Source: an uncultured Bacteroidales bacterium (lineage in GTDB: Bacteria; Bacteroidota; Bacteroidia; Bacteroidales; VadinHA17). Taken from it: DNA of 64,000 bases. Both the position numbers and the translations under genes were made by a program. Positions 6,343 through 43,519 of the stretch are shown one piece after another. Location of the stretch: the NCBI GenBank assembly GCA_963849945.1, contig CAWKJD010000003.1, positions 232,678 through 296,677 of the forward strand, in the 5' to 3' direction. Numbering within the stretch: the stretch's first letter is position 1; every line of letters starts with the position of its first letter. The notes below the pieces were generated by a model, which did no database searches, was not told the origin of the DNA, and worked only from the letters and a program-made list of their open reading frames with translations.

Positions 6343-8118
6343 TCATGCAGACTTCATCCAGTTAACCAGTCCCTTCTTCTCAATGATCTGTTTCAGTTCA
6401 GGCGGGAGAGGCTGGAAAGTAAACCGCTTTCCTCCAATTGTAAGCGATCCTTTATCAAAGTCGATGTCAACCTTATCTCCGGGCCTGTACGCCTCAACCG
6501 CATCCCTGTGGACGATCAGCGGAAGCCCCTGATTGATGGAAGAGCGATAGAATATGCGGTTTACCGACTTGATTATCACAGCCCTGATACCCAGATGAGC
6601 CAATCCTACTGAGGGGTGCTCACGCGAGCTCCCGCAGCCGAAGTTATCACCTGCAATAATGATATCCCCGGCCATTGCATTTTTGCTGAATGACGGATCA
6701 AAATCGACGAAAAGCAATGGCAAAATGGCAGCAGCATCGGAGCTCATGACACTGTAGGTGTGCTTGCCTGCAAACATCTGATCGGTGCTTAGATTGTCAA
6801 CATCGGAATAATTCCAGATATTGCCCTCTTTCCTGTTCTCTCCTTCCCTGATAACAATTGTGGCGCTCTGGGGAGGGTTAAAGGGAAATACTTCATCTCC
6901 CTTAACCTCTCTTGGGTCTGTGATCACACCGGTTATGGACGATGCAGCCACCGTTGCGGGTGAAGCAAGGTAGATAGAAGCTTCCTTATTGCCCATCCTG
7001 CCGAGGAAATTACGGTTGGCGGTTGAGATAACCACATGACCGTTTGCCGGAATACCCTGGCCGGTGCCGAGGCATGGTCCGCAGGAAGGACTCAGGATAT
7101 TTGCCCCTGCTTCCAGGAGATCAGTAATAATGCCTTCCTTTATCGCCTGCAGATATATCTCTCTGGAAGCCGGAATTATATGAAGCTGGAACCCTGGTTT
7201 CACCTTCTTCCCTTTCAGGATCGCAGCTGCTACCCTCAGATCTTCAATCCTGCCGTTGGTGCAGGTTCCGATAAGTCCCTCATGCACCACGGTGCCGGCG
7301 ACGGAGGCGACAGATTTAACATTATCAACGTTATGAGGGGCAGCAACAAGCGGAAATACCTGCGAAAGGTCAATGGAAATACGGCAGTTGTATTCAGCAC
7401 CTTCATCTGCCCACACTCCTGTTGTTGCTTCACCTGTATATTTCTGAAGAACGGCATCGGCAGGGAAAACAGCATTCTTCGCACCCATCTCTGATGCAAG
7501 GTTGGCAACCGTCATTCTCTCACTTATACTCAGGGTTGAGACTCCCTCTCCGTGAAACTCTATCGACATGTAGTTGGCGCCGTCAGAGCCAAGCATACCT
7601 ATTATCCACAGTGACAAGTCCTTGGCACTGACACCCGGACGCAATTTCCCCTTGAGGTCAATTCTCATTGAAGGAGGCACAAGGAACCATGTCTCGCCCC
7701 GTTTCCAGATACCGGCTGCTTCGGTACGGTCAATACCTGCCGCAAGTGCATTAAATGCGCCTGCCGTGCAGGTATGACTGTCAGATCCGACAATTATCAT
7801 CCCCGGCCGTGCATGGTATGACATCAACTGGTGACAGATACCGGTCCCTAAGTCATAAAACTTCATGATTCCCTGTTCGGTAACTATATTGCGTATGTCC
7901 TGGTACTGCGTTGCCAGCTTTGCGTCAGCAGGGGGTGCATTATGGTCAAGCACCACCAGCATTTGAGCGGGGTCAGCGACCTTCTGCCCTCCCATCTTGC
8001 GGAAAGTCTGGTAAATGCTTGAGGTATTGTCGTGGGTAAGTATTATGTCAGGTTTTCTGAAGACTATAGCTCCCTCAGGGGCGCCGAGTATCTTTTCAAC
8101 AAATGTCTGTGGTTTCAT
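6343..8118 (-). CDS. Aconitase-family hydratase, fused LeuC+LeuD (large+small subunit), canonical active site
   Basis: VLDH, GICHQ, DSHT, GTCTNG, SCGPCLG ([4Fe-4S] ligands), TANRNF, C-terminal swivel domain NFGCGSSREH. Confidence 0.88.
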   Translation of the reverse strand: MKPQTFVEKILGAPEGAIVFRKPDIILTHDNTSSIYQTFRKMGGQKVADPAQMLVVLDHNAPPADAKLATQYQDIRNIVTEQGIMKFYDLGTGICHQLMSYHARPGMIIVGSDSHTCTAGAFNALAAGIDRTEAAGIWKRGETWFLVPPSMRIDLKGKLRPGVSAKDLSLWIIGMLGSDGANYMSIEFHGEGVSTLSISERMTVANLASEMGAKNAVFPADAVLQKYTGEATTGVWADEGAEYNCRISIDLSQVFPLVAAPHNVDNVKSVASVAGTVVHEGLIGTCTNGRIEDLRVAAAILKGKKVKPGFQLHIIPASREIYLQAIKEGIITDLLEAGANILSPSCGPCLGTGQGIPANGHVVISTANRNFLGRMGNKEASIYLASPATVAASSITGVITDPREVKGDEVFPFNPPQSATIVIREGENRKEGNIWNYSDVDNLSTDQMFAGKHTYSVMSSDAAAILPLLFVDFDPSFSKNAMAGDIIIAGDNFGCGSSREHPSVGLAHLGIRAVIIKSVNRIFYRSSINQGLPLIVHRDAVEAYRPGDKVDIDFDKGSLTIGGKRFTFQPLPPELKQIIEKKGLVNWMKSA

Positions 8119-8136: not shown

Positions 8137-9954
8137 TTAAATTTTTCCAAGAAGCCCGCCTTTAATATATATCTCATACTGTGCGTCATAGAACGGGCTA
8201 ATAGTCATTTTCAGTCCGGTGCGTTCATTGACTGCTTCTCCGGTAAGAAGGTTTACCGTCAGTATGTCCTGATCCCTGAGACCGATCTTTTCAAACAAAT
8301 CACAGGTAAGAACAGGGAACGCTGCATTAATGGCATTGCGCTCATAAATGGCTCCGAAGGAGCGTGCTATCACAGCCTGGATGCCCAGGGAAATAAAACA
8401 GTCCACCGCCTGCTGGCGGGAGCTTCCGCTGCCGAAGTTCTTACCGGCAATTATTATGTCACCTGCCCGGGCCTTCTGTGCAAAGTCTTTGTAACCTTCA
8501 AGGTTGTCAAAGGTATATTGCCCCATTTCGCGTATGTCCGTTATGGCAAGATAGCGGTTATGAAAGATCATGTCAGTGTCAATATTGTCACGTTCGATCA
8601 TCCAGACCCTGCCTTTGATTGAGGTTGGGCGTTCCGGGCCGGTTTTCCGGGGATTATTTTTCTGCGTCACAGGCTGTCCTTCCGTTTTCTCAAATGCAAC
8701 GGGTCTGGCAGGGATGGCATCAGGAGTTGTAATATACCCTGCCAGTGCCGAGGCAGCTACCACAGCGGGGGAACCAAGGAAAACACTGCCCTGCCCCTGC
8801 TTGCCCGGGAAATTACGGTTACCAGTGCTGACAGTCACTTCACCTTTACCGTTCTGTCCCACCTGCCCGGCTGCACATCCGGCACAACCGGCATTGGATA
8901 CAAGTGCTCCCGCATTCTTGAATATTTCAATCAAGCCTTCAGCCAGGCACTCTTTCCAGACTTTATCGGTTGAAGGCACTATCTTAAGCACCACTCCCGG
9001 GGCTACTTTCTTTCCCCTGAGGATATCTGCCGCAGCACTCATGTCTTCAATGCGTCCGTTGGTGCAGCTGCCGATGAATGCAGAATCGATCCTTGTCAAA
9101 GGCAGTTCATTCACCGGTACGGTATCATGCGGTTGACCCGGTCTTGATACCATCGGCCTGAAGGTTGTAACGTCTATATCTGCAATAAGCTGATATGATG
9201 CGTCAGCATCAGCAAAGACAGGTTCAAAGGGTTCTTTGGTACGGGCGCGGCAATAGCTTATTATTTCTTCTGAAGGCGGAAAAAGAATTATTATTGCACC
9301 CATCTCAGTCGCCATAGATGAAATTGTTATGCGCTGATCGAGTGTCATTCTGTCAACTGCCCTGCCGTAAAGTTCGATACTGAACCCCAGGAGAGTGTTG
9401 GCTCCGTAGATATTGAGCAGGTTAAGTATAACATCCTTTGCAGTAACGTCTCCGGGCAACTCTCCGTTGAGGTTTATCTTCACGGATGAAGGCACCTTGA
9501 ACCATACTTTTCCGGTGTTCCAGGCAGCGGCTATATCCATGTCGCCCATACCCTGTCCGAATGCACCCACGGCGCCAAGGATATTCGCGTGTGAGTCAGT
9601 TGATACTGCAGTGGCGCCGGGCCAGATATACCCCTCTTCAATAAGAATATGAGTTCCGATACCGGCATTGATATCATAGACCTTAATATCATTATTACGG
9701 GCGAATTTCCGGCAGATATGCTGGTTTACTGCATATTTCTGGTCGGAACCGGTAGGATTGCAGTCGAACGTAAAGAATGTCCTGGCAGGATTGTCAACCG
9801 ACAGACCGAAGTCCTCGAGATTCCTGACGACATTGGCTCCGCCGAAATCCCTCGCCGCACGGGTGTCAATGCCAATATCGATAATGTCCCCGGGTTTTAC
9901 GCTCCCGTATTTTGAATGCAATGCAATAATCTTTTCGGTGATTGTCATTCCCAT
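8137..9954 (-). CDS. Aconitase-family hydratase, fused LeuC+LeuD, variant active site
   Basis: GSCTNG, GCAGCAAG, STGNRNF, NIDTD, NFGSGSSRQQA. DH is replaced by DC and GICH by GIGTH. Confidence 0.85.
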   Translation of the reverse strand: MGMTITEKIIALHSKYGSVKPGDIIDIGIDTRAARDFGGANVVRNLEDFGLSVDNPARTFFTFDCNPTGSDQKYAVNQHICRKFARNNDIKVYDINAGIGTHILIEEGYIWPGATAVSTDSHANILGAVGAFGQGMGDMDIAAAWNTGKVWFKVPSSVKINLNGELPGDVTAKDVILNLLNIYGANTLLGFSIELYGRAVDRMTLDQRITISSMATEMGAIIILFPPSEEIISYCRARTKEPFEPVFADADASYQLIADIDVTTFRPMVSRPGQPHDTVPVNELPLTRIDSAFIGSCTNGRIEDMSAAADILRGKKVAPGVVLKIVPSTDKVWKECLAEGLIEIFKNAGALVSNAGCAGCAAGQVGQNGKGEVTVSTGNRNFPGKQGQGSVFLGSPAVVAASALAGYITTPDAIPARPVAFEKTEGQPVTQKNNPRKTGPERPTSIKGRVWMIERDNIDTDMIFHNRYLAITDIREMGQYTFDNLEGYKDFAQKARAGDIIIAGKNFGSGSSRQQAVDCFISLGIQAVIARSFGAIYERNAINAAFPVLTCDLFEKIGLRDQDILTVNLLTGEAVNERTGLKMTISPFYDAQYEIYIKGGLLGKI

Positions 9955-35514: not shown

Positions 35515-37719
35515 TCACTGGCCAAGCTCCAGCTGGTCTCTTATAAGCCTGTAGTAGGCACCTTTTTTCTGAGTCAGCTCCTGATGTGTTCCCATTTCCT
35601 GCACTGATCCTTTATCCAGCACCACGATCATGTCAGCATTGCGAACTGTACTCAGACGATGTGCAACAATAATCACTGTTCTTCCGGCATAGAAACCTGC
35701 CAGGTTTTCCACAATCCTTCTTTCGTTTGACGCATCAAGGGCGCTTGTGGCTTCATCAAGCAGGAGCAGTGAAGGCTCCTTGAATATGACCCGGGCAATG
35801 AGTATTCGCTGTTTCTGTCCCTGACTTAGGCCGTGCCCCCCCTGGCCGATCATTGTCTGCAACCCGGCGGGCAGATTATCAAGCAGGGGCTGCAGGTTGG
35901 AAATCCTGACTGCCCGCTTAACACATTCAGGATCAGGATTGTCAACACCAGGAGCAATGTTGGCGATGATTGTTTCCGGGAATATGTAGCCTTCCTGCAT
36001 CACAACACCTGTTGCCCTCCTGAGAGAGGTTATGCTTATGTCTTCAAGTTTTCTCTCTCCTATCATAATGAAACCCTTCTCGGGCCGGTAAAAACCCATC
36101 AGGAGCTTCAGGAGCGTCGTTTTTCCTGACCCGCTCTCTCCGACTATGGCGGTGATCTTCCCGGAGGGTATAAGAAGGCTGAGATCATTTATCACCCATG
36201 GCGAACCCGGACCCTCATACCTGAAGGAAAGGTTTTCGACTTTAATTCTCATTTCTTCCGGAGCCGGGACTTTTCCCGTATCTCCCTCAGCTTCTTCCGG
36301 GTCCATGGCATGGACCTCTGCGAGGCGCTCAAGACTGATCCTGGCATCCTGTGTCGAACGCATGAAACTGATGATCTGAGATACCGGACCGTTCAGCTGA
36401 CCTGTGATGAACTGAACGGCAAGCATCATACCAAGTGTCATAGTACCATTTATAACAGATGTAGCGGAGATGACAGTAATGATGATATTGACAAATTCAT
36501 GTATCAGCGTCCCTCCTGCTGTCTGGAACTGTAATATTTTAAGACCTTTTATACGTGTCCGGTAGATTTCTCCCTGCCGGGCTTCCCACTCTTTTCTGTT
36601 TGAAGCCTCGTTGCCTGCAAGTTTGATCTCCTGCATTCCGTTAACGATGTTGATCATCTTATTGCCCGATTCGGCCATCTGCCTAAACCTTATGTTGTCA
36701 AGGCGCTCGCGCGAAGGCATGAAAACCATCACGTACAGCAGGTAAAGCGCGGTTCCTCCCAGAAAAACGAGCAGGACCGGAATATTGTACAATCCCAGTA
36801 CAACCCCGAAGACCACAAGATTAAAGAAAGAAAAAAGTATTGCCAGGCTTGAAGAGGTGAGGTAGTCCTCAATCCGGCTGTTATCATCTATTCTTTGCAG
36901 AATGTCTCCGTTAAGCTTGGTGTCAAAATAAGCTATAGGAAGTTTCATCAGCCGGGCAAGAAAATCAGACACGATGGTTATGTTCAGTCGTGTTCCCACA
37001 TGAAGAAGAAGCCAACCTCGCGTGAACTCCACTGCCATTCGTCCCACGATGAGCGCCAGCTGTCCAGCAAGGATCAGGTAAATAAGCCTGAGATCACTGT
37101 TCTTAATACCTCTGTCTATTATCGCCTGCGTGAGAAAAGGAAAGACAAGCTGTATGGCGCTTCCTGCAATCAAACCCGCAAAAAGCAGGATTATCTGCCG
37201 GCGATAAGGCTTTAAATAGGGAAGCAGGAAGGCAAAACCGCTTTTTGCCGGCGGATCGTCAGGTATATCTGCAAAGCCGGGTCCCGGCTCAAGAAAGAGC
37301 GCCATTCCGGCATGTTTATCATCATTGCTGTCCGTTGACCATCCTTTCAGAAACTCATCTGTTGTCATCCTGATCCTTCCCAGCGCAGGGTCACTGACCC
37401 AGACTCTTTTTTTGGAAATCTTATTTACCACGATAAAGTGGTTTTGCTGCCAGTGAACAATACAGGGCAGCGGAGCTTTCCCGGAGAGCCCGGTAAATGG
37501 TATCTTCACTCCTGCCACCCTGAACCCCAGGCTTTCTCCGGCGGATTTAAGTCCCAGGAATGATACGCCTTCGCGTGTGATAAATGCCTTCCTGCGAATG
37601 GTCTCCAGTGAAATCCGCTTACCGTGCCACCGTGCGACCATACTTATGCATGCAGGGCCACAATCCATGGCATCATATTGTCTGACAAAGGGATAACTCA
37701 TAACTTTAAGGCAGGTCAT
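35515..37719 (-). CDS. Peptidase-domain-containing ABC transporter (C39 peptidase + TMD + NBD; PCAT)
   Basis: QYDAMDCGPAC (Cys), HWQQNHFIV (His), SDP (Asp), GESGSGKTT, LSQGQKQR, LDEATS. Alternative start at 37701. Confidence 0.93.
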   Translation of the reverse strand: MTCLKVMSYPFVRQYDAMDCGPACISMVARWHGKRISLETIRRKAFITREGVSFLGLKSAGESLGFRVAGVKIPFTGLSGKAPLPCIVHWQQNHFIVVNKISKKRVWVSDPALGRIRMTTDEFLKGWSTDSNDDKHAGMALFLEPGPGFADIPDDPPAKSGFAFLLPYLKPYRRQIILLFAGLIAGSAIQLVFPFLTQAIIDRGIKNSDLRLIYLILAGQLALIVGRMAVEFTRGWLLLHVGTRLNITIVSDFLARLMKLPIAYFDTKLNGDILQRIDDNSRIEDYLTSSSLAILFSFFNLVVFGVVLGLYNIPVLLVFLGGTALYLLYVMVFMPSRERLDNIRFRQMAESGNKMINIVNGMQEIKLAGNEASNRKEWEARQGEIYRTRIKGLKILQFQTAGGTLIHEFVNIIITVISATSVINGTMTLGMMLAVQFITGQLNGPVSQIISFMRSTQDARISLERLAEVHAMDPEEAEGDTGKVPAPEEMRIKVENLSFRYEGPGSPWVINDLSLLIPSGKITAIVGESGSGKTTLLKLLMGFYRPEKGFIMIGERKLEDISITSLRRATGVVMQEGYIFPETIIANIAPGVDNPDPECVKRAVRISNLQPLLDNLPAGLQTMIGQGGHGLSQGQKQRILIARVIFKEPSLLLLDEATSALDASNERRIVENLAGFYAGRTVIIVAHRLSTVRNADMIVVLDKGSVQEMGTHQELTQKKGAYYRLIRDQLELGQ

Positions 37720-37849: not shown

Positions 37850-38416
37850 TTGGGGCTATTCAAGAAGTATCCGGACAATGACATCATAGATGGCATAAGG
37901 AGGCAGGACAGTAAGATTCTTACCTACCTTTATGATGCATATTATGAGGTTGTCCGTGACCACCTGAAAAAGAACAGCGGATCCGATGATGATGTGTATG
38001 ATGTGCTTCAGGAAGCAGTGGTTATACTTTATAAGCAAATCACCGGTGAAGGTTTTACGCTGACCTCCGACCTTAAGGGTTATTTTTTTGGCATAGCAAG
38101 GAATGTATGGAACACGCAGCTCAGATATCAGTCGCGGATGACATCCCTGGTGGCCGAACCGGAAGATACGGCAGAGGCGGAGGATGTCACAGCAGCAACC
38201 CTTGAAAGGATTGTATCCAGGTCATTTGCCATGCTTAAGGAAGACTGTCAGATGGTGCTTAATCTTTTCAGCGAAGGCTGCAGTTATGAAGAGATAGCCC
38301 TTAAAATGGGACTTAAGAACGAATCATACGCAAGGAGAAAGAAATACCTGTGCAAGGAAGCTTTAATGGAGATCATCAGGACTGACCCTGAATATCAGGA
38401 TCTCGGCCCCCTGTAG
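37850..38416 (+). CDS. ECF-type RNA polymerase sigma-70 factor
   Basis: DVYDVLQEAV (region 2), YFFGIARNVW, region 4 CQMVLNLF..GCSYEEIALKMG...ARRKKYLC. TTG start. Confidence 0.88.
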   Translation: MGLFKKYPDNDIIDGIRRQDSKILTYLYDAYYEVVRDHLKKNSGSDDDVYDVLQEAVVILYKQITGEGFTLTSDLKGYFFGIARNVWNTQLRYQSRMTSLVAEPEDTAEAEDVTAATLERIVSRSFAMLKEDCQMVLNLFSEGCSYEEIALKMGLKNESYARRKKYLCKEALMEIIRTDPEYQDLGPL

Positions 38417-41400
38417 ACTGTGGCGATAAGTACTGCAGACACCATAAGTAAAAGCAGCAGGGCTGTATAGAGCTTCACCCTGTTAAACCAGAGAGGGGTA
38501 TCATCACCGTAAATAACAAGTGTTGCCCAGTAATAAGGATGTGACCGCGTCTGATCTGCTGACCTCAGAAACTTCAGGCGGGCACTACGGAGGGCTGAGC
38601 TTTTAGTCTCTCCGCTTCTCATATTCTTGTAAAAAGATTTAATTACTTCGGAAGCAGAATAATCCTCTACAGCCCACATCGACATAACTACCGATCGGCT
38701 GCCTGCAAAGAGAAATCCTCTTGCCAGGCTGAGTATCCCCTCTCCTGTTGCAAGCATTCCCGTACCTGTATTACATGAGCTAAGGACCACCATCATAGCG
38801 TTGATAGGCACATTATAGACTTCGTAGGTGTTAAGCATGCCATCTTCACCGCCTCCTCCGGAAGGTCTGGAAAAGATCATTTTGGAAAAAGCCGGATGGC
38901 TATCATTTACAAGCGTATGCATGGCCAGATGAATTATCTTATAGTTGCGGGCCTGGCTTTTATAGGCTGCCTCTGTGGCATTTTCTCCTATAAAGGCTTT
39001 TCCTCCGCACTGCCTGACTGCATCTTCCGCTTCAATGACTGCATAAGGAAGACTTCGAATTTCACCTCTGAGATTGGGATATAATGTCAGAAGGGAATCG
39101 TCTATCTGCATGCCCTTATATGTGGGTGCAAAAGCAATAAGTTCATTACTCAGGTTACGGCTGCGTACCTGAGTCTCAGATGAGAGGGTCACGCTGTAGA
39201 TGTAGGAAAAACGGTACTTCTTCAGAGCAAAAGGGGCCTCCCGGTAAAGGAGTTCCGGACTCCTGAATTCCTCTGTTATCAATGTTTCAAAAGGAAGATA
39301 GGAAAGGATATTGTCAGGAGAAATAATTATTTTGTCGCCCTTCAGAAATGGCTCAGCAGGTTTGAGAAGGATATTATACAGCTCGAAGGAAAGATCCATA
39401 TATTCATTGAAAGGCTGTCTTACGCTGCTGGTCCCGGGCATTACCGAAAGCATCTTCCTGAACCTGTCCAGGGAACCAAAGAAAGATGAATCAATGTCGC
39501 GCGTAATGATCTCTGTATGATGCCTGTTTGTTACGAATATATAAAGTTTTTCTTCCGTCAGCACATAGCTCAGCAGGTTGGCCTTTCTGCCGATAACATT
39601 TGTGATATCGTCAAGAGGAGTCACCTCACTTTTGAACTTAAGGTTATAGTAAGAAGGGTAACTCTTTTCAAATATCCGTATCAGTGAATCTCGTGATCGT
39701 AGAAGCCCGAAATTAACCTGCTCCCATGTAGCTATTTTCTGTGAATCAGGTCTTGCCTTGCTTTTCTCATTGATGATTTTCTCTTTATAGAAACCAATTT
39801 TCCCCCTTATTTCATTATTCTTGTTCACCAGGTCTTCGGGAAGAGAGAATTTGGCTGCATTAAGCTCCCTCATTGACGCCAGAAAACCAGCGACCTTGCT
39901 TCTTTCAGAAAATTCAAAAGCCCCTCTAAGGTATGATTGATCATGCTGCCGGTTGTATAACTGAACATAGTTGTCAATCATTCCTGTATAGAATTCTCTT
40001 GAGTAAGCGCTCAGGTTTGTCCGGCTCTCCTCCTCACTCATCTCAAGTCTCTGACGGTCAAGTAATGACATGACTTCCCTGCCTTTTTCGACGGCATCTT
40101 TCAGTATATCATCTTCCCCGGATGCCCTGGCCATCGCATTCAAACACCTGTATCTCAGCATAAGTACCCGCAGGTCATCGGATGAGTATGAACCTTTTAC
40201 CTCTGCTGAAGCCGAAACGTCCGCGGTTGATTCAGTTGAACCGATTATGGTGTCTGCCACTTCAAGTGCTTTATTGTATTGACCTAAATCAAATAGTGTC
40301 TCGGCATAGTCGGTCATGATGTACCTTTTCATTGAGTTATCCCACGGATGGCTTTCCAGATAAGGAAGGCAGCTCATGTAGATTTCAAGAGCCCTGTATC
40401 CGCTTCCGGGCGTTTGCCTCTCAAAGTCAGCCCGTGCAGCCAGGATAAGACAATATTCACGGCTGTCAGTACCGAAAGCTTTTCTGACATAAGCAATTCC
40501 GTCCTCCAGCACCTTCTCGCCCTCAGCCTCTCTTCCTCTCCCGTCAAGGAATGATGCATAATTTATATAGAGAAGGTACTTTTCCCTGGTATCTGGCTCA
40601 TCTGATAGAGAGAGTCCTCTCTTAAAGCACTTCTCAGCTTCTTCCGGCTGGTCAAGGTTTTTGTATAATTGCGACATTGTATTCAGTATCAGCTGCTTCG
40701 ATCCGCTTTTATCTGTACCGTACCTGTCATAAAGCTTAAGCGCTTCCTTGCAATAATCGAGTGATTTTGTATACTCGGAATTGCGGCAAAGACTTAAACC
40801 GATGACCTGATAAAGGTCGGCAGTTCGAGCATGTGTAACCTTTTCGGGATAGGTTCCGGCGAGCCGGAGTCCCGCTTCAGCCAGTGAGATTGCATCGTCA
40901 GACTCGTTCATCTCAAGGCAGATGCTTGCCAGGTTCAGGTAGTTGCCTGCGAGTGATGAGGAATCACTGCCTATTACCAGCCTCCTTGCCTCCAGCCCTT
41001 TCATACCCACGTCATATCCCCGCGAAAAATCGCCGGTCTTGAAAAACGTTGCAGCAAGATTACTCAGGCATAAGGCGTACTTCAGGTCAGAGACGCCGGC
41101 ATGCTCTCTGAGACGGGCTGATTTGGTGAAACTTTCAATGGCCTCACCAAACATGTTTCGGCGCAGGAAATAATGGCCTGTTATATAATACGAATCCGAA
41201 AGCAGAACAGAATCAGTAATTTCCTTTGCAGAAAGTATCTTATTGATCTCTTCAGCCAGTATGTCTGTCTTTCCGTCTGCCTCACCGGACTCAATGGCAG
41301 CCTGCAGGTCACTGTTGAGATCTGCCAGACGCAATGCAACGGTGTCCCGTCCCTCAGTACCTTCCGGATTAAATGAACTGGAAAAGAGACTTGCAGGATA

Positions 41401-41463
41401 CACTGCCTGTCCCAAAACAATAAACAGGAATATCAGGGTGAGTAAATGACGTATCTGACTCAT
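38395..41463 (-). CDS. TPR + CHAT-domain (caspase-like) protease with signal peptide and C-terminal TM anchor
   Basis: N-terminal hydrophobic signal, TPR repeats, AFEFSERSK, ISPDNILSYLPFETL, IIHLAMH (His), VVLSSCNTG (Cys), SLARGF..AG..SVVMSMW, HPYYWA, C-terminal LYTALLLLLMVSAVLIATVY. Confidence 0.92.
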   Translation of the reverse strand: MSQIRHLLTLIFLFIVLGQAVYPASLFSSSFNPEGTEGRDTVALRLADLNSDLQAAIESGEADGKTDILAEEINKILSAKEITDSVLLSDSYYITGHYFLRRNMFGEAIESFTKSARLREHAGVSDLKYALCLSNLAATFFKTGDFSRGYDVGMKGLEARRLVIGSDSSSLAGNYLNLASICLEMNESDDAISLAEAGLRLAGTYPEKVTHARTADLYQVIGLSLCRNSEYTKSLDYCKEALKLYDRYGTDKSGSKQLILNTMSQLYKNLDQPEEAEKCFKRGLSLSDEPDTREKYLLYINYASFLDGRGREAEGEKVLEDGIAYVRKAFGTDSREYCLILAARADFERQTPGSGYRALEIYMSCLPYLESHPWDNSMKRYIMTDYAETLFDLGQYNKALEVADTIIGSTESTADVSASAEVKGSYSSDDLRVLMLRYRCLNAMARASGEDDILKDAVEKGREVMSLLDRQRLEMSEEESRTNLSAYSREFYTGMIDNYVQLYNRQHDQSYLRGAFEFSERSKVAGFLASMRELNAAKFSLPEDLVNKNNEIRGKIGFYKEKIINEKSKARPDSQKIATWEQVNFGLLRSRDSLIRIFEKSYPSYYNLKFKSEVTPLDDITNVIGRKANLLSYVLTEEKLYIFVTNRHHTEIITRDIDSSFFGSLDRFRKMLSVMPGTSSVRQPFNEYMDLSFELYNILLKPAEPFLKGDKIIISPDNILSYLPFETLITEEFRSPELLYREAPFALKKYRFSYIYSVTLSSETQVRSRNLSNELIAFAPTYKGMQIDDSLLTLYPNLRGEIRSLPYAVIEAEDAVRQCGGKAFIGENATEAAYKSQARNYKIIHLAMHTLVNDSHPAFSKMIFSRPSGGGGEDGMLNTYEVYNVPINAMMVVLSSCNTGTGMLATGEGILSLARGFLFAGSRSVVMSMWAVEDYSASEVIKSFYKNMRSGETKSSALRSARLKFLRSADQTRSHPYYWATLVIYGDDTPLWFNRVKLYTALLLLLMVSAVLIATVYRGPRS

Positions 41464-41676
41464 CAGTGAGGTTCTTCTTTCTTTCCGGTGTAAAAATATA
41501 AAACTATTCCATACCCCCGTTTGTGAAGTTTTTTTGTCTTTTTATATGGCTGAAAATGAGCCAGATATGATTTCCTGAAAAAAATAATTGATTTTTTTGT
41601 GTCACAAATGGCCACTTTATGACATGTACGGTATAAAGTGCATTTAACCCTGATTAATTTATAAAAACTTTAAGAG

Positions 41677-41814
41677 ATGAAAACCCTGAAAATTGAAAAT
41701 TTTGCTGAGTATGTTCTTTCAAATGAAGAAATGATTAATGTCCGTGGCGGACTTGGTGGTAATGCAAAGGGTGAAACAGGCCCCACCAAGCCCCCCATTA
41801 TTATTGAGATCTGA
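41677..41814 (+). CDS. 45-aa double-glycine-leader peptide precursor (not in ORF track)
   Basis: Manual translation: MKTLKIENFAEYVLSNEEMINVRGG|LGGNAKGETGPTKPPIIIEI*. The leader matches LSxxE(L/M)xx(I/V)xGG. A/T-rich upstream region, and a C39 exporter lies 4 kb away. Confidence 0.82.
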   Translation: MKTLKIENFAEYVLSNEEMINVRGGLGGNAKGETGPTKPPIIIEI

Positions 41815-42010
41815 TTCTGATATAACGGCCTTTCAAAGGCCTGACAAAATATACTTTGTACAGGTGGACTCTGCCGGAGGCAGACCATCGTGGTGCAACT
41901 GAAAACATGCCCTCATGAAGGCATCGGCGCTCAGGAAGGCGCGTTGTAGAAAATTGTAATTAACTGTTTGACAGTTCTTTAAATAGAGGTGTGAAATAAT
42001 ATAATATAAC

Positions 42011-42754
42011 ATGAAGACGATTAATGTCAACAACACAATTGAGAATTACCTCAGCGGTATAACAGGCAAGGCTGAAGAAGCCTGGCTGAAAGAGGAGATT
42101 CGAAAAGATCCGGCCCTTGCCAGGGAGGTAAATCTCAGGCGCAGAACAAATGAGATTCTGGCTGACAGAAATATTATCGACCTGAGAACAAAGCTCGGAG
42201 CCATAGAAATGAAAAAACGCTATAGCGGAACTGTGCGCAGGACAGCTATAAGGGCAGCAAGTTATGCTGCAGCGGTGCTTCTTGTATTAATCATTTCCTC
42301 GGCATTGTATTTTGCCTTCAGACCCGGGTCAAATGAGATGCTTTTTAATAAGTACTATGCCCGGTATGAATCGCCAGGCAATGTCAGATCGGTGGTCAGT
42401 TCAGGTAACTCACTGATGGAGAATGCCATAGCCTCCTACTCAGCCAAAGAGTATGATAAGGCAATAGAGTATCTTCAACAGGTCATCAGCACCGGTCAGG
42501 CTGACATGGAAACTGTCTTCATGCACGGCGTTGCCAGCATGGAGGTAAGAAATTATCCTGCGGCAAGCGGTTCATTCACAAAGGTTATAGAGAATAATGA
42601 TAACCTTTATCTTGAAGATGCCGCATGGTACCTGGGCCTATGCTATATGAAGACCGGCGATGCTGAAAAAGCTCTGAATCAGTTCAAGGCAATAGCCGCG
42701 TCAAAGAGCAGATACAGCAAAGAGGCAGCAAAACTTGCGCGAAGACTTAAATAA
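42011..42754 (+). CDS. Membrane-anchored TPR protein, probable anti-sigma factor
   Basis: N-terminal IENYLSG...EEAWLKEEIRKDPALAREV (anti-sigma-like helical domain), TM YAAAVLLVLIISSALYFAF, C-terminal TPRs (AAWYLGLCYMKTGD). Confidence 0.75.
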   Translation: MKTINVNNTIENYLSGITGKAEEAWLKEEIRKDPALAREVNLRRRTNEILADRNIIDLRTKLGAIEMKKRYSGTVRRTAIRAASYAAAVLLVLIISSALYFAFRPGSNEMLFNKYYARYESPGNVRSVVSSGNSLMENAIASYSAKEYDKAIEYLQQVISTGQADMETVFMHGVASMEVRNYPAASGSFTKVIENNDNLYLEDAAWYLGLCYMKTGDAEKALNQFKAIAASKSRYSKEAAKLARRLK

Positions 42755-42778: not shown

Positions 42779-43519
42779 ATGATAAACAAACCTCAGATAA
42801 TAGAAGGAGTATCGCATGAGGTGCGTACACAGATGAACTCTATCGTCGCCTTTTCATACCTGCTGAACAATGCACGGTTCAGTGACAATGAAAAACGTGA
42901 GTTCTCTGAACAGATAATATCGTCATGCGAACAGCTCATAGGCCTTTTTGAAAATTTCTTTGATACTGCAGTCCTTGATTCAGGTTCATCAAAAGAAAAC
43001 CTCAGGGAAACGGATGCCGGTAAACTGTTTGAGTCACTAGCCTCAGAATTCAGGGTTTTACTGAGGAAAAAGGACAAGGACAATGTTATTCTCATTCAGG
43101 AGGATAACCTGCCGGAAAGGCTAATGTTGAGAATTGATAAGGCAAGGACAGGCAGAATAATAAGTAATCTCTTCAGGAATGCACTCAGCAATACTTTTTC
43201 AGGGTTTATAAAGCTGGGATGCACTTACAATGATGAGATGATCACGTTCTATATTAAAGATTCTGGCCAGGGTTTTTCGAGTAGCAGTCACCTGCTGCTT
43301 TCCGATAATCCTGAGATCCAATATTCCGACAGTCAGGATACCTATTCCGCTATGAATTTAATCCTGGCCAGAAATCTTATATCGGCATTAAAAGGTAAAA
43401 TCAGGGTTGAAACCAACGATGCCGGAGGTACTTCAGTTTTTGTCTCTTTACCAGCTAAAGAAAGTTCAGGGTTTAAAATACTAACCGGTTCTTCTTCGGA
43501 AAACAGAATTGCTATCTGA
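42779..43519 (+). CDS. Sensorless histidine-kinase-like protein (HisKA + HATPase, degenerate G2 box)
   Basis: SHEVRTQMNSI H-box, NLFRNAL N-box, IKDSGQGF G1. The G2 box reads AMNLILARNL instead of GLGL. Confidence 0.75.
   Translation: MINKPQIIEGVSHEVRTQMNSIVAFSYLLNNARFSDNEKREFSEQIISSCEQLIGLFENFFDTAVLDSGSSKENLRETDAGKLFESLASEFRVLLRKKDKDNVILIQEDNLPERLMLRIDKARTGRIISNLFRNALSNTFSGFIKLGCTYNDEMITFYIKDSGQGFSSSSHLLLSDNPEIQYSDSQDTYSAMNLILARNLISALKGKIRVETNDAGGTSVFVSLPAKESSGFKILTGSSSENRIAI

Follow-up and report, generated by a model that had tools for sequence, protein, structure and literature searches.

Introduction

Signalling by peptides made from double-glycine (GG) precursors is textbook knowledge in Gram-positive bacteria. 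To our knowledge it is hardly documented in Gram-negative phyla, and the receptor is always a histidine kinase. Proteases in which tetratricopeptide repeats (TPR) are joined to a caspase-like CHAT domain are known from craspase, where the protease is switched by an RNA-guided complex, and TPR domains that hold peptides include those of Hop and PP5 with the Hsp90 motif MEEVD, of LGN/Pins with NuMA and Insc, of OGT with its asparagine ladder, and the prolyl-4-hydroxylase domain with (Pro-Pro-Gly)3. Here we analyze a stretch of 64,000 nucleotides (the window, in whose numbering coordinates are given unless another contig or locus is named) from contig CAWKJD010000003.1 of an uncultured Bacteroidales bacterium (assembly GCA_963849945.1), in which a 45-codon gene for a GG peptide lies beside the gene of a TPR-CHAT protease, to which the peptide is probably tied in function.

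Among periplasmic TPR-CHAT proteases the closest described system is DdvA-DdvS. In the accessible part of its report (PMC11506125) the signal of DdvA is unknown, no peptide or exporter gene is described alongside it, and DdvA-like proteins are reported only from Myxococcota and one Comamonas. The families TIGR04149 and PF14406 are Bacteroidetes precursors of peptides that are made on ribosomes and modified after translation (RiPPs), associated with radical SAM or ATP-grasp enzymes according to the accessible parts of PMC4573289 and PMC8939145. The parts of the module described here are known, that is, a GG leader with a peptidase-containing ABC exporter (PCAT), a TPR-CHAT protease, and a sigma factor of the extracytoplasmic function (ECF) type with a membrane partner; their combination comes closest in logic to DdvA-DdvS and to the Gram-positive GG pheromones. 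In the literature searched, no description of CHAT proteases linked with double-glycine peptides or PCATs was found.

Results

A conserved double-glycine peptide gene

The peptide gene and its parts, taken from an alignment of 36 peptides, are the following:
41677-41814, forward strand: precursor peptide gene with an ATG start, 45 codons and a stop codon, recognized by conservation, coding selection and the leader model
41677-41751, forward strand: leader, residues 1-25, ending in R-G-G
41752-41811, forward strand: predicted exported core, residues 26-45, after the putative cleavage site at G25
41782-41811, forward strand: C-terminal decapeptide P-T-K-P-P-I-I-I-E-I, the predicted TPR-docking part, based on conservation, a ratio of nonsynonymous to synonymous variation (pN/pS) of 0.18 and the modelled interface

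The open reading frame (ORF) follows a 213-base gap past a divergent gene for a protein of 1022 aa (38395-41463, reverse strand), and is separated by 196 bases from the next gene (42011-42754, forward strand, 247 aa). The frame and its translation are as given in the initial annotation, and the gene is almost certainly real. It is present in one copy in its own genome, and among 36 other genomes of the same genus 35 carry a full-length match in an open frame, while 24 genomes from other families of the order gave just two weak matches (E 0.35 and 0.67). A scan with one genome per species yielded 65 peptide loci, whose hosts are labelled as uncultured Bacteroidales or Rikenellaceae metagenome-assembled genomes. 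Pooling the loci left 67 different coding sequences for 64 different peptides, and the selection statistics were computed on the 53 versions of exactly 45 codons. The peptide frame is the sole one open in all 53. The leader had a pN/pS of 0.21, the linker (residues 26-35) one of 0.70 and the tail (residues 36-45) one of 0.18. Within the tail, the entropy reached 1.40 at third codon positions, compared with 0.42 and 0.16 at the first and second ones. Lengths among relatives range from 43 to 45 aa and differ in whole codons. By these sequence comparisons the peptide is under purifying selection.

The gene had been presented as unannotated, which is right for the ORF track used at that stage and wrong for public data, where 49 homologues have been called as proteins, almost all of them "hypothetical protein" and one "natural product precursor". 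A Pfam search with the peptide returned nothing, the top match being Mersacidin with an E of 0.14, and PF14406 did not match it either. One relative (L114) has two tandem copies of the peptide gene (7965-8105 and 8156-8281) with nearly identical cores.

GG leaders are about 15-30 residues long and follow the consensus L-S-x-x-E-[LM]-x-x-[IV]-x-G-G, in which positions -4, -7 and -12 are hydrophobic and -8/-9 is acidic. The leader found here has the consensus M-K-T-L-K-I-E-N-F-A-E-F-V-L-S-N-E-E-M-I-N-V-R-G-G, with R23, G24 and G25 invariant in the 36 sequences, and its last part (...F-V-L-S-N-E-E-M-I-N-V-R-G-G) has -12 occupied by L, -8 by E, -7 by M and -4 by V, in such a way that the proposed fit to the recognition consensus of C39 peptidases holds. 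Compared with the Bacteroidetes GG-leader model TIGR04149, residues 1-26 scored 17 bits (E 0.004), below the curated cut-off of 25 bits for membership of that family, and the match is confined to the leader. The core, LGGNAKGETGPTKPPIIIEI, contains neither Cys nor aromatic residues and is neutral, with two K and two E, also as initially described.

The initial annotation had also predicted a conserved leader followed by a variable core, which is not the pattern found. Only the linker varies, with 7-10 residues of which G27 alone is conserved (in at least 90% of the sequences), and the C-terminal decapeptide is nearly invariant, ending the protein as PT[KR]PP[IV][IV]IE[ILF]-COOH, with P36, T37, P39, P40, I43 and E44 conserved in at least 90% of the sequences. 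When the genome is translated in all six frames, the pattern P[TS][KR]PP followed by two hydrophobic residues turns up a single time. A second GG (L26-G27-G28), put forward as an alternative cleavage site yielding a shorter peptide, is limited to one clade, the LGG/NGG subset, and position 28 may be G, A, V, R, T, P or I; therefore there is no conserved alternative cleavage site among the relatives. In a distant group of loci (L111-L115, with proteases 33-45% identical) the leader is kept, and the core has an acidic start, then a Pro-rich stretch, and ends with three or four hydrophobic residues.

On another contig of the same genome (C5:792-3215, reverse strand), a TonB-dependent-receptor-like frame of 807 aa ends in ...T-I-G-I-I-I-E-I, sharing the last five residues of the peptide. 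A loose pattern leads to the expectation of about 0.5 IIIEI-type endings among real proteins, and chance is possible. The likeness could hint at imitation of an outer-membrane-protein C-terminus by the peptide tail.

Linkage to a TPR-CHAT protease

The gene divergent from the peptide encodes the protease:
38395-41463, reverse strand: extracytoplasmic TPR-CHAT (caspase-like) protease, 1022 aa, CHAT match 1.1e-49

Neighbours were annotated with Pfam and NCBIfam. In every locus that is long enough, the order and orientation of the genes are fixed as exporter, sigma factor, protease, peptide, membrane-TPR protein and kinase. Synteny over the 65 loci was detected for the exporter in 58, the sigma factor in 59, the protease in 62, the peptide in 64, the membrane-TPR protein in 65 and the kinase in 64. 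The loci without a syntenic exporter end at contig edges or are short, and the lone locus in which tblastn missed the peptide (L115) does contain the ORF.

The linkage extends beyond the genus. With the profile of the genus, matches were found by the leader only in 11 other genomes among 400 of the order and in 3 other genomes among 400 of the phylum. Nine leader-matching loci of other families were inspected at 20 kb, from seven genomes and five families, and a CHAT gene adjoins the peptide, whose core is again rich in Pro and free of Cys, in all nine, with an ECF sigma factor and a membrane-TPR protein in four of them and an exporter in three. Five of these seven genomes have 2-6 CHAT genes each in 2.7-5.4 Mb, and by a rough estimate CHAT adjacency would be expected by chance in about 1% of cases per locus. 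Twelve of the 22 CHAT genes inspected there have a divergent small ORF upstream, in which a GG leader precedes a Cys-free core rich in Pro, such as D-G-A-T-T-P-P-P-P-V-K-T-G-T-E-E-D-I-I-L, D-G-D-...-P8-10-... or D-G-I-T-P-P-P-E-D-P-P-T-E-P-Q-G.

In other Bacteroidales families, a poly-proline class of such genes lies beside CHAT genes (L123:10004-10126, L125:9945-10079, and also in L137, L138 and L139), with cores of the form D-G-D/N-...-P7-10-...-G-G. The only ATG is inside the leader, and the in-frame residues upstream of it are still GG-leader-like, so these genes probably use a non-ATG start and would be missed or truncated by gene callers.

The protease, encoded by the only CHAT gene of its genome, has a hydrophobic segment at residues 3-29, a TPR superhelix at about 36-610, the CHAT domain at 694-987 and a C-terminal hydrophobic anchor at 995-1020 followed by six residues. 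The combination of an N-terminal signal and a C-terminal anchor indicates that the body of the protease faces the periplasm. The His-Cys dyad of the CHAT domain is intact, and all of 53 orthologues keep residues H845, H849 and C897. An AlphaFold model, with a predicted local distance difference test (pLDDT) of 74.8 for the protease, shows all-helical repeats at about 36-610 and then an alpha/beta CHAT domain. Its top matches among solved folds were DdvA (8rw5/8rot, E 8.7e-13), then separase and the craspase subunit Csx29, with low TM-scores, as expected for flexible, multi-domain chains; LGN/Pins and OGT TPRs were among the matches of the N-terminal region. The signal sequence (41392-41463) ends in ...V-L-G|Q-A-V-Y-P, which fits the Q-rule of exported Bacteroidetes proteins, by which a Gln follows the cleavage site, as stated in the accessible part of PMC10653852.

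Docking model of the peptide and the protease

A complex was modelled with residues 40-990 of the protease (alignment of 53 sequences) and residues 16-45 of the peptide (alignment of 35). The interface score ipSAE was 0.78, 0.78 and 0.79 in three runs, whereas the controls gave 0.02, 0.00 and 0.00; when this score was calibrated, 58 of 80 solved complexes and 2 of 110 mismatched pairs came up to the mark, figures that hold only approximately here because our own alignments were supplied. The runs share at least 55% of their contacts, with a partner pLDDT of at least 51, and the model carries no information on affinity. Residues 33-45 of the peptide contact residues 54-381 of the protease with a repeat-like spacing, the tail running antiparallel to the superhelix. 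One contacting Asn or Gln is provided per repeat, N135, N177, Q219, N261 and N301, with conservation values of 0.98, 0.92, 0.70, 0.98 and 0.96, respectively. The central contacts conserved in at least 90% of the sequences are N135, N177, S180, L183, E184, D216, V220, L223, R227, S255, L258, N261, T262, I300 and N301. The model places the predicted receptor site of the peptide in the TPR groove of residues 54-381.

Regarding the initial idea that the core does not resemble a bacteriocin and is connected with a TPR-CHAT protein, the fixed gene order, the nine CHAT-adjacent loci out of nine and the model score of 0.78 against 0.02 support it.

The other genes of the module

The module is completed by four genes:
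35515-37719, reverse strand: peptidase-containing ABC exporter (PCAT), 734 aa, with Peptidase_C39 (4.4e-36), ABC_membrane and ABC_tran
37850-38416, forward strand: ECF-type sigma factor, 188 aa, TTG start, with Sigma70_r2 and r4_2 (TIGR02937, 5.3e-14)
42011-42754, forward strand: single-pass membrane TPR protein, 247 aa, with matches to TPR families and one hydrophobic segment
42779-43519, forward strand: soluble histidine kinase core (HisKA and HATPase_c), 246 aa, with no sensor domain and no membrane segment

The exporter matches PCAT1 (4ry2, E 3e-105) and ComA (8hf4, E 5e-87) end to end, and by inspection its C39 domain is intact, with Q14, C20, H94 and D110, which we take to be the catalytic residues. 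It is presumed to process and export the peptide. No HlyD-type gene is present in the module, and a search of the genome, which is 93% complete, with the HlyD-type protein of another family (f19) as the query found no such partner. For PCATs without a membrane-fusion partner, delivery of the substrate to the periplasm has been proposed, according to the accessible part of PMC10986499. As no such partner was found in the genus, the core probably ends in the periplasm, and we infer that this is where the peptide is released in this genus. In family f19 (L117:12390-13706) the peptide, the exporter and an HlyD-type membrane-fusion protein follow in this order on one strand.

The ECF sigma factor and CHAT genes are convergent and their 3' ends overlap by 22 bases (38395-38416), an arrangement kept in relatives. 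The 247-aa protein has a cytoplasmic N-terminal part of three helices (H6-15, H20-32 and H34-50), a transmembrane helix within residues 77-107 and a periplasmic TPR domain (model pLDDT of 69.8). A weak match to the anti-sigma factor LIMLP_03685 was detected (E 0.077), and the motif H-x3-C-x2-C is absent from the protein. With this topology and position it is a candidate anti-sigma factor. The kinase gene begins 24 bases past the 247-aa gene, an association found in 64 of the 65 loci, and a scan of ORFs between 25512 and 52467 revealed no response regulator. Beyond the kinase lie genes for a PorE-family TPR/PD40/OmpA protein, QueE, an alkaline phosphatase and a 5'-nucleotidase.

Promoter-like element and stem-loops

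Around the peptide gene, the conserved non-coding elements are:
41600-41628, forward strand: promoter-like element TGTCAC-N17-CATGTA, conserved in 53 aligned upstream regions
41827-41841 and 41870-41884, forward strand: stem-loops after the peptide stop codon, two of a series in 41815-42010

The element TGTCAC-N17-CATGTA, conserved before the peptide gene alone, is also present in the distant group L111-L115. It overlaps an imperfect palindrome (41600-41624), which is the sole site of the genome with 0-1 mismatch. The housekeeping promoter motif of Bacteroidetes is TAnnTTTG. It is absent from the peptide upstream element, while the ECF and exporter genes have TAnnTTTG-like motifs near their starts; the element is therefore a candidate ECF-sigma-dependent promoter, and the peptide operon would be read by the module's own ECF sigma factor. 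A further palindromic site with 2 mismatches (C17:28804-28828, L141:1501-1525) was considered as a member of the regulon and set aside, as it lies between unrelated-looking genes for proteins of 209 and 380 aa and is probably due to chance.

In the series of stem-loops, aligned from 23 relatives, 11 pairs were predicted and 8 of them show compensatory changes, the first stem-loop lying just past the stop codon. They probably serve as a terminator, an attenuator or a stabilizer for a short transcript of the peptide gene. Before the start codon of the 247-aa gene lies an AT-rich block (...ATAAGTGTGAAATAATA...) that is conserved.

Discussion

Taken together, these data lead us to propose that the exported peptide is the ligand of the periplasmic TPR-CHAT protease within a sigma/anti-sigma circuit, a mechanism to which, taken whole, we give an even chance. 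The C39 domain of the exporter would cut the 45-residue precursor after G25, and the 20-residue core would cross the inner membrane and stay in the periplasm. There, the tail PTKPPIIIEI-COOH would lie extended in the concave N-terminal TPR groove of the membrane-anchored protease, held by the conserved Asn/Gln ladder N135, N177, Q219, N261 and N301. Occupancy of the groove would alter the activity of the caspase-like domain, activation being the favoured sense. The protease would then act on the periplasmic part of the 247-aa TPR protein, the probable anti-sigma factor, in such a way that the ECF sigma factor would be freed to read TGTCAC-N17-CATGTA before the peptide/anti-sigma/kinase operon, closing a feedback loop. 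The specific version in which the PCAT-exported peptide docks by its decapeptide and activates the periplasmic caspase-like protease for site-1 cleavage of the anti-sigma factor is more tentative, and we regard it as somewhat doubtful.

Several results weigh against this proposal. The conservation of the modelled contacts is 0.72 against 0.61 in the rest of residues 50-389, a value that 17 of 5000 shuffles reach, and contact sets shifted by 1-4 residues score 0.67-0.72; therefore the enrichment is regional and not specific, and gives no independent support to the interface. The pLDDT of the peptide itself in the complex is about 52, and, solved TPR-peptide complexes being common, the high complex score may come in part from likeness to them. 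Co-variation of the core with the CHAT TPR, as anticipated at the outset, did not appear beyond phylogeny. In 38 loci the distances between linkers were compared with those of the CHAT TPR, the CHAT domain, the membrane-TPR protein and the kinase, and the raw r of 0.46-0.62 for the module proteins, next to 0.70 with the PorE-like neighbour, fell to partial values of -0.17 to 0.02 when this neighbour was used as a stand-in for phylogeny (-0.08 for linker and TPR). The linker is outside the confident docking interface, so that the lack of linker/TPR co-variation is accounted for and agrees with the free variation of the linker.

The coupling is also not general. Of 121 genomes sampled from the order, 69 have CHAT genes, and in a reverse check on 40 families, with the best-scoring CHAT gene with enough flank taken from each, a convincing divergent GG peptide within 1.2 kb was found in only 4 of the 40 loci. 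Three of the 40 offered fewer than 200 bases upstream. The background of the loose GG pattern is about 0.05 per kb, and none of those background matches is leader-like. Peptide-coupled CHAT modules are therefore a subclass, which by sequence is seen in about ten families. As for the circuit, the assignment of the promoter to the ECF factor is by inference, and the anti-sigma role of the 247-aa protein is drawn from topology, position and the match with E 0.077, profile searches against solved structures and a Foldseek search with its model having returned TPR relatives only. In an RNA library of a close relative, contigs 95-99% alike cover only 42081-42230 and 43027-43294, parts of the two downstream genes, for which DNA carry-over is possible, and the peptide itself is uncovered in that one library. 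Finally, with the HlyD-type protein behind the exporter in family f19, the peptide may leave the cell in those relatives.

The same linkage and docking evidence would also suit the peptide being a substrate or a securin-like pseudosubstrate inhibitor of TPR-CHAT. With its tail docked, the peptide would offer its variable linker to the active site; it would then either be shortened by the protease to a decapeptide, the mature signal, or keep the protease in check for as long as any peptide is left. Separase-securin complexes are among the best fold matches, the linker is under relaxed selection (pN/pS 0.70), as for a spacer, and in the model the N-terminal side of the peptide points to the later repeats of the TPR region and so to the CHAT domain. 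No linker residue is conserved as a cleavage site, however, and residues 16-32 make no confident contact with the CHAT domain in the model, which is silence and not counter-evidence to contact. We consider this explanation unlikely; it and the next one stay within the frame of the proposal and are the alternatives that count.

Rather improbable is a reading in which the 247-aa protein senses the exported peptide with its periplasmic TPR domain, or the kinase does so indirectly, and the CHAT protease has a separate role. The peptide is co-oriented with these two genes and directly upstream of them in 65/65 and 64/65 loci, respectively, and the TPR domain of the 247-aa protein resembles peptide-binding TPR modules, with weak scores, but in five of the nine leader-matching loci of other families (L121-L125) the membrane-TPR protein of the window, used as query, matched nothing next to the peptide and CHAT genes.

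An unmodified bacteriocin or microcin, exported by the PCAT against competitors, would account for the GG leader, the PCAT nearby and the HlyD-type protein behind the exporter in one other family, as in bacteriocin loci. The features of the peptide are others: its core of 20 residues is net neutral and Cys-free with a Pro-rich extended tail, and the gene is single-copy at a fixed position in 35/36 genomes of the genus with the tail under purifying selection, unlike patchy, diversifying toxin loci. In addition, the conserved neighbours (regulator, protease, kinase and housekeeping genes) include no candidate immunity gene, and the query used found no HlyD-type partner in the genome. This makes a bacteriocin very improbable.

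We give still less weight to a precursor of a modified RiPP of the TIGR04149 / PF14406 kind, with a radical SAM or ATP-grasp enzyme encoded elsewhere. The leader does resemble TIGR04149, and one public homologue is named "natural product precursor", but the score is 17 against 25 bits, PF14406 does not match, and the Cys-free core has no conserved Ser/Thr/Asp/Lys pattern except T37 and E44. No RiPP maturase is found near the peptide, as the sole radical SAM neighbour is QueE, a queuosine enzyme, and the only SPASM-like match of the genome is sub-threshold and on another contig. Least probable of all, with hardly any chance, is a regulatory upstream frame whose translation and stem-loops tune the two downstream genes, the peptide itself being roleless, since the stem-loops with compensatory changes after the stop codon would suit it but amino-acid selection on leader and tail, a canonical export leader and a retained cognate exporter are unexpected for an attenuator.

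Returning to the proposal of a peptide ligand for the protease, the modelled binding mode is like that of the TPR domains mentioned above, in which an extended, partly Pro-rich strand lies on the concave face with a conserved Asn/Gln per repeat. Those domains differ in being eukaryotic cytosolic scaffolds or enzymes, none of them fused to CHAT or fed by a dedicated exported peptide.

The Gram-positive GG pheromones (ComC/CSP with ComAB, BlpC and PlnA) share with this module a short GG precursor, a C39-ABC exporter in the module, an unmodified core of about 20 residues and a probable feedback promoter. They are read by a membrane histidine kinase and a response regulator, whereas here the kinase is a soluble sensorless core, the module has no response regulator, and the conserved partner is a TPR-CHAT protease of the periplasm, accompanied by an ECF sigma factor. 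The host is diderm, and the peptide may stay in its periplasm.

Bacteroidetocins and class II microcins also combine a GG leader with PCAT-type export in Gram-negatives. They are antibacterial and of greater length, and Cys residues that form disulfides are frequent in them. The present peptide is shorter and neutral, lacks Cys and belongs to the core genome of its genus, and neither a cationic or amphipathic Cys-bearing core nor an adjacent immunity gene is found. With the TIGR04149 / PF14406 RiPP precursors it shares the same general Bacteroidetes type of GG leader, as these are described in the accessible parts of PMC4573289 and PMC8939145, and differs from them in scoring below the cut-off, in lacking a maturase in the module, in its Cys-free core and in having a protease as partner. 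A Bacteroidetes GG leader alone does not mean a bacteriocin or a RiPP.

The module belongs to the core genome of an uncultured soil/sediment genus and recurs with other Pro-rich peptides across Bacteroidales, and it may be a widespread, overlooked regulatory device. If the activating version of the proposal is true, it would represent a bacterial caspase cascade gated by a peptide and, for Bacteroidota, a circuit of autoinduction by a peptide, recurring with different Pro-rich peptides in at least ten Bacteroidales families. A counterpart close in logic is DdvA-DdvS. As in that system, a periplasmic TPR-CHAT protein with a His-Cys dyad is encoded here beside an ECF sigma factor gene, and the proposed logic is alike, with signal-activated, caspase-like site-1 cleavage freeing a sigma factor. 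In DdvA, as far as the accessible part of its report describes it, the zinc-binding anti-sigma domain, the membrane helix and TPR-CHAT are in one polypeptide with a cytoplasmic N-terminus, whereas the protease of this module combines a signal sequence with a C-terminal anchor, and its candidate anti-sigma factor is a protein apart. A peptide ligand and a predicted groove make the question of TPR-CHAT activation directly testable and, if the activating version is true, suggest what type of signal periplasmic TPR-CHAT domains like that of DdvA read.

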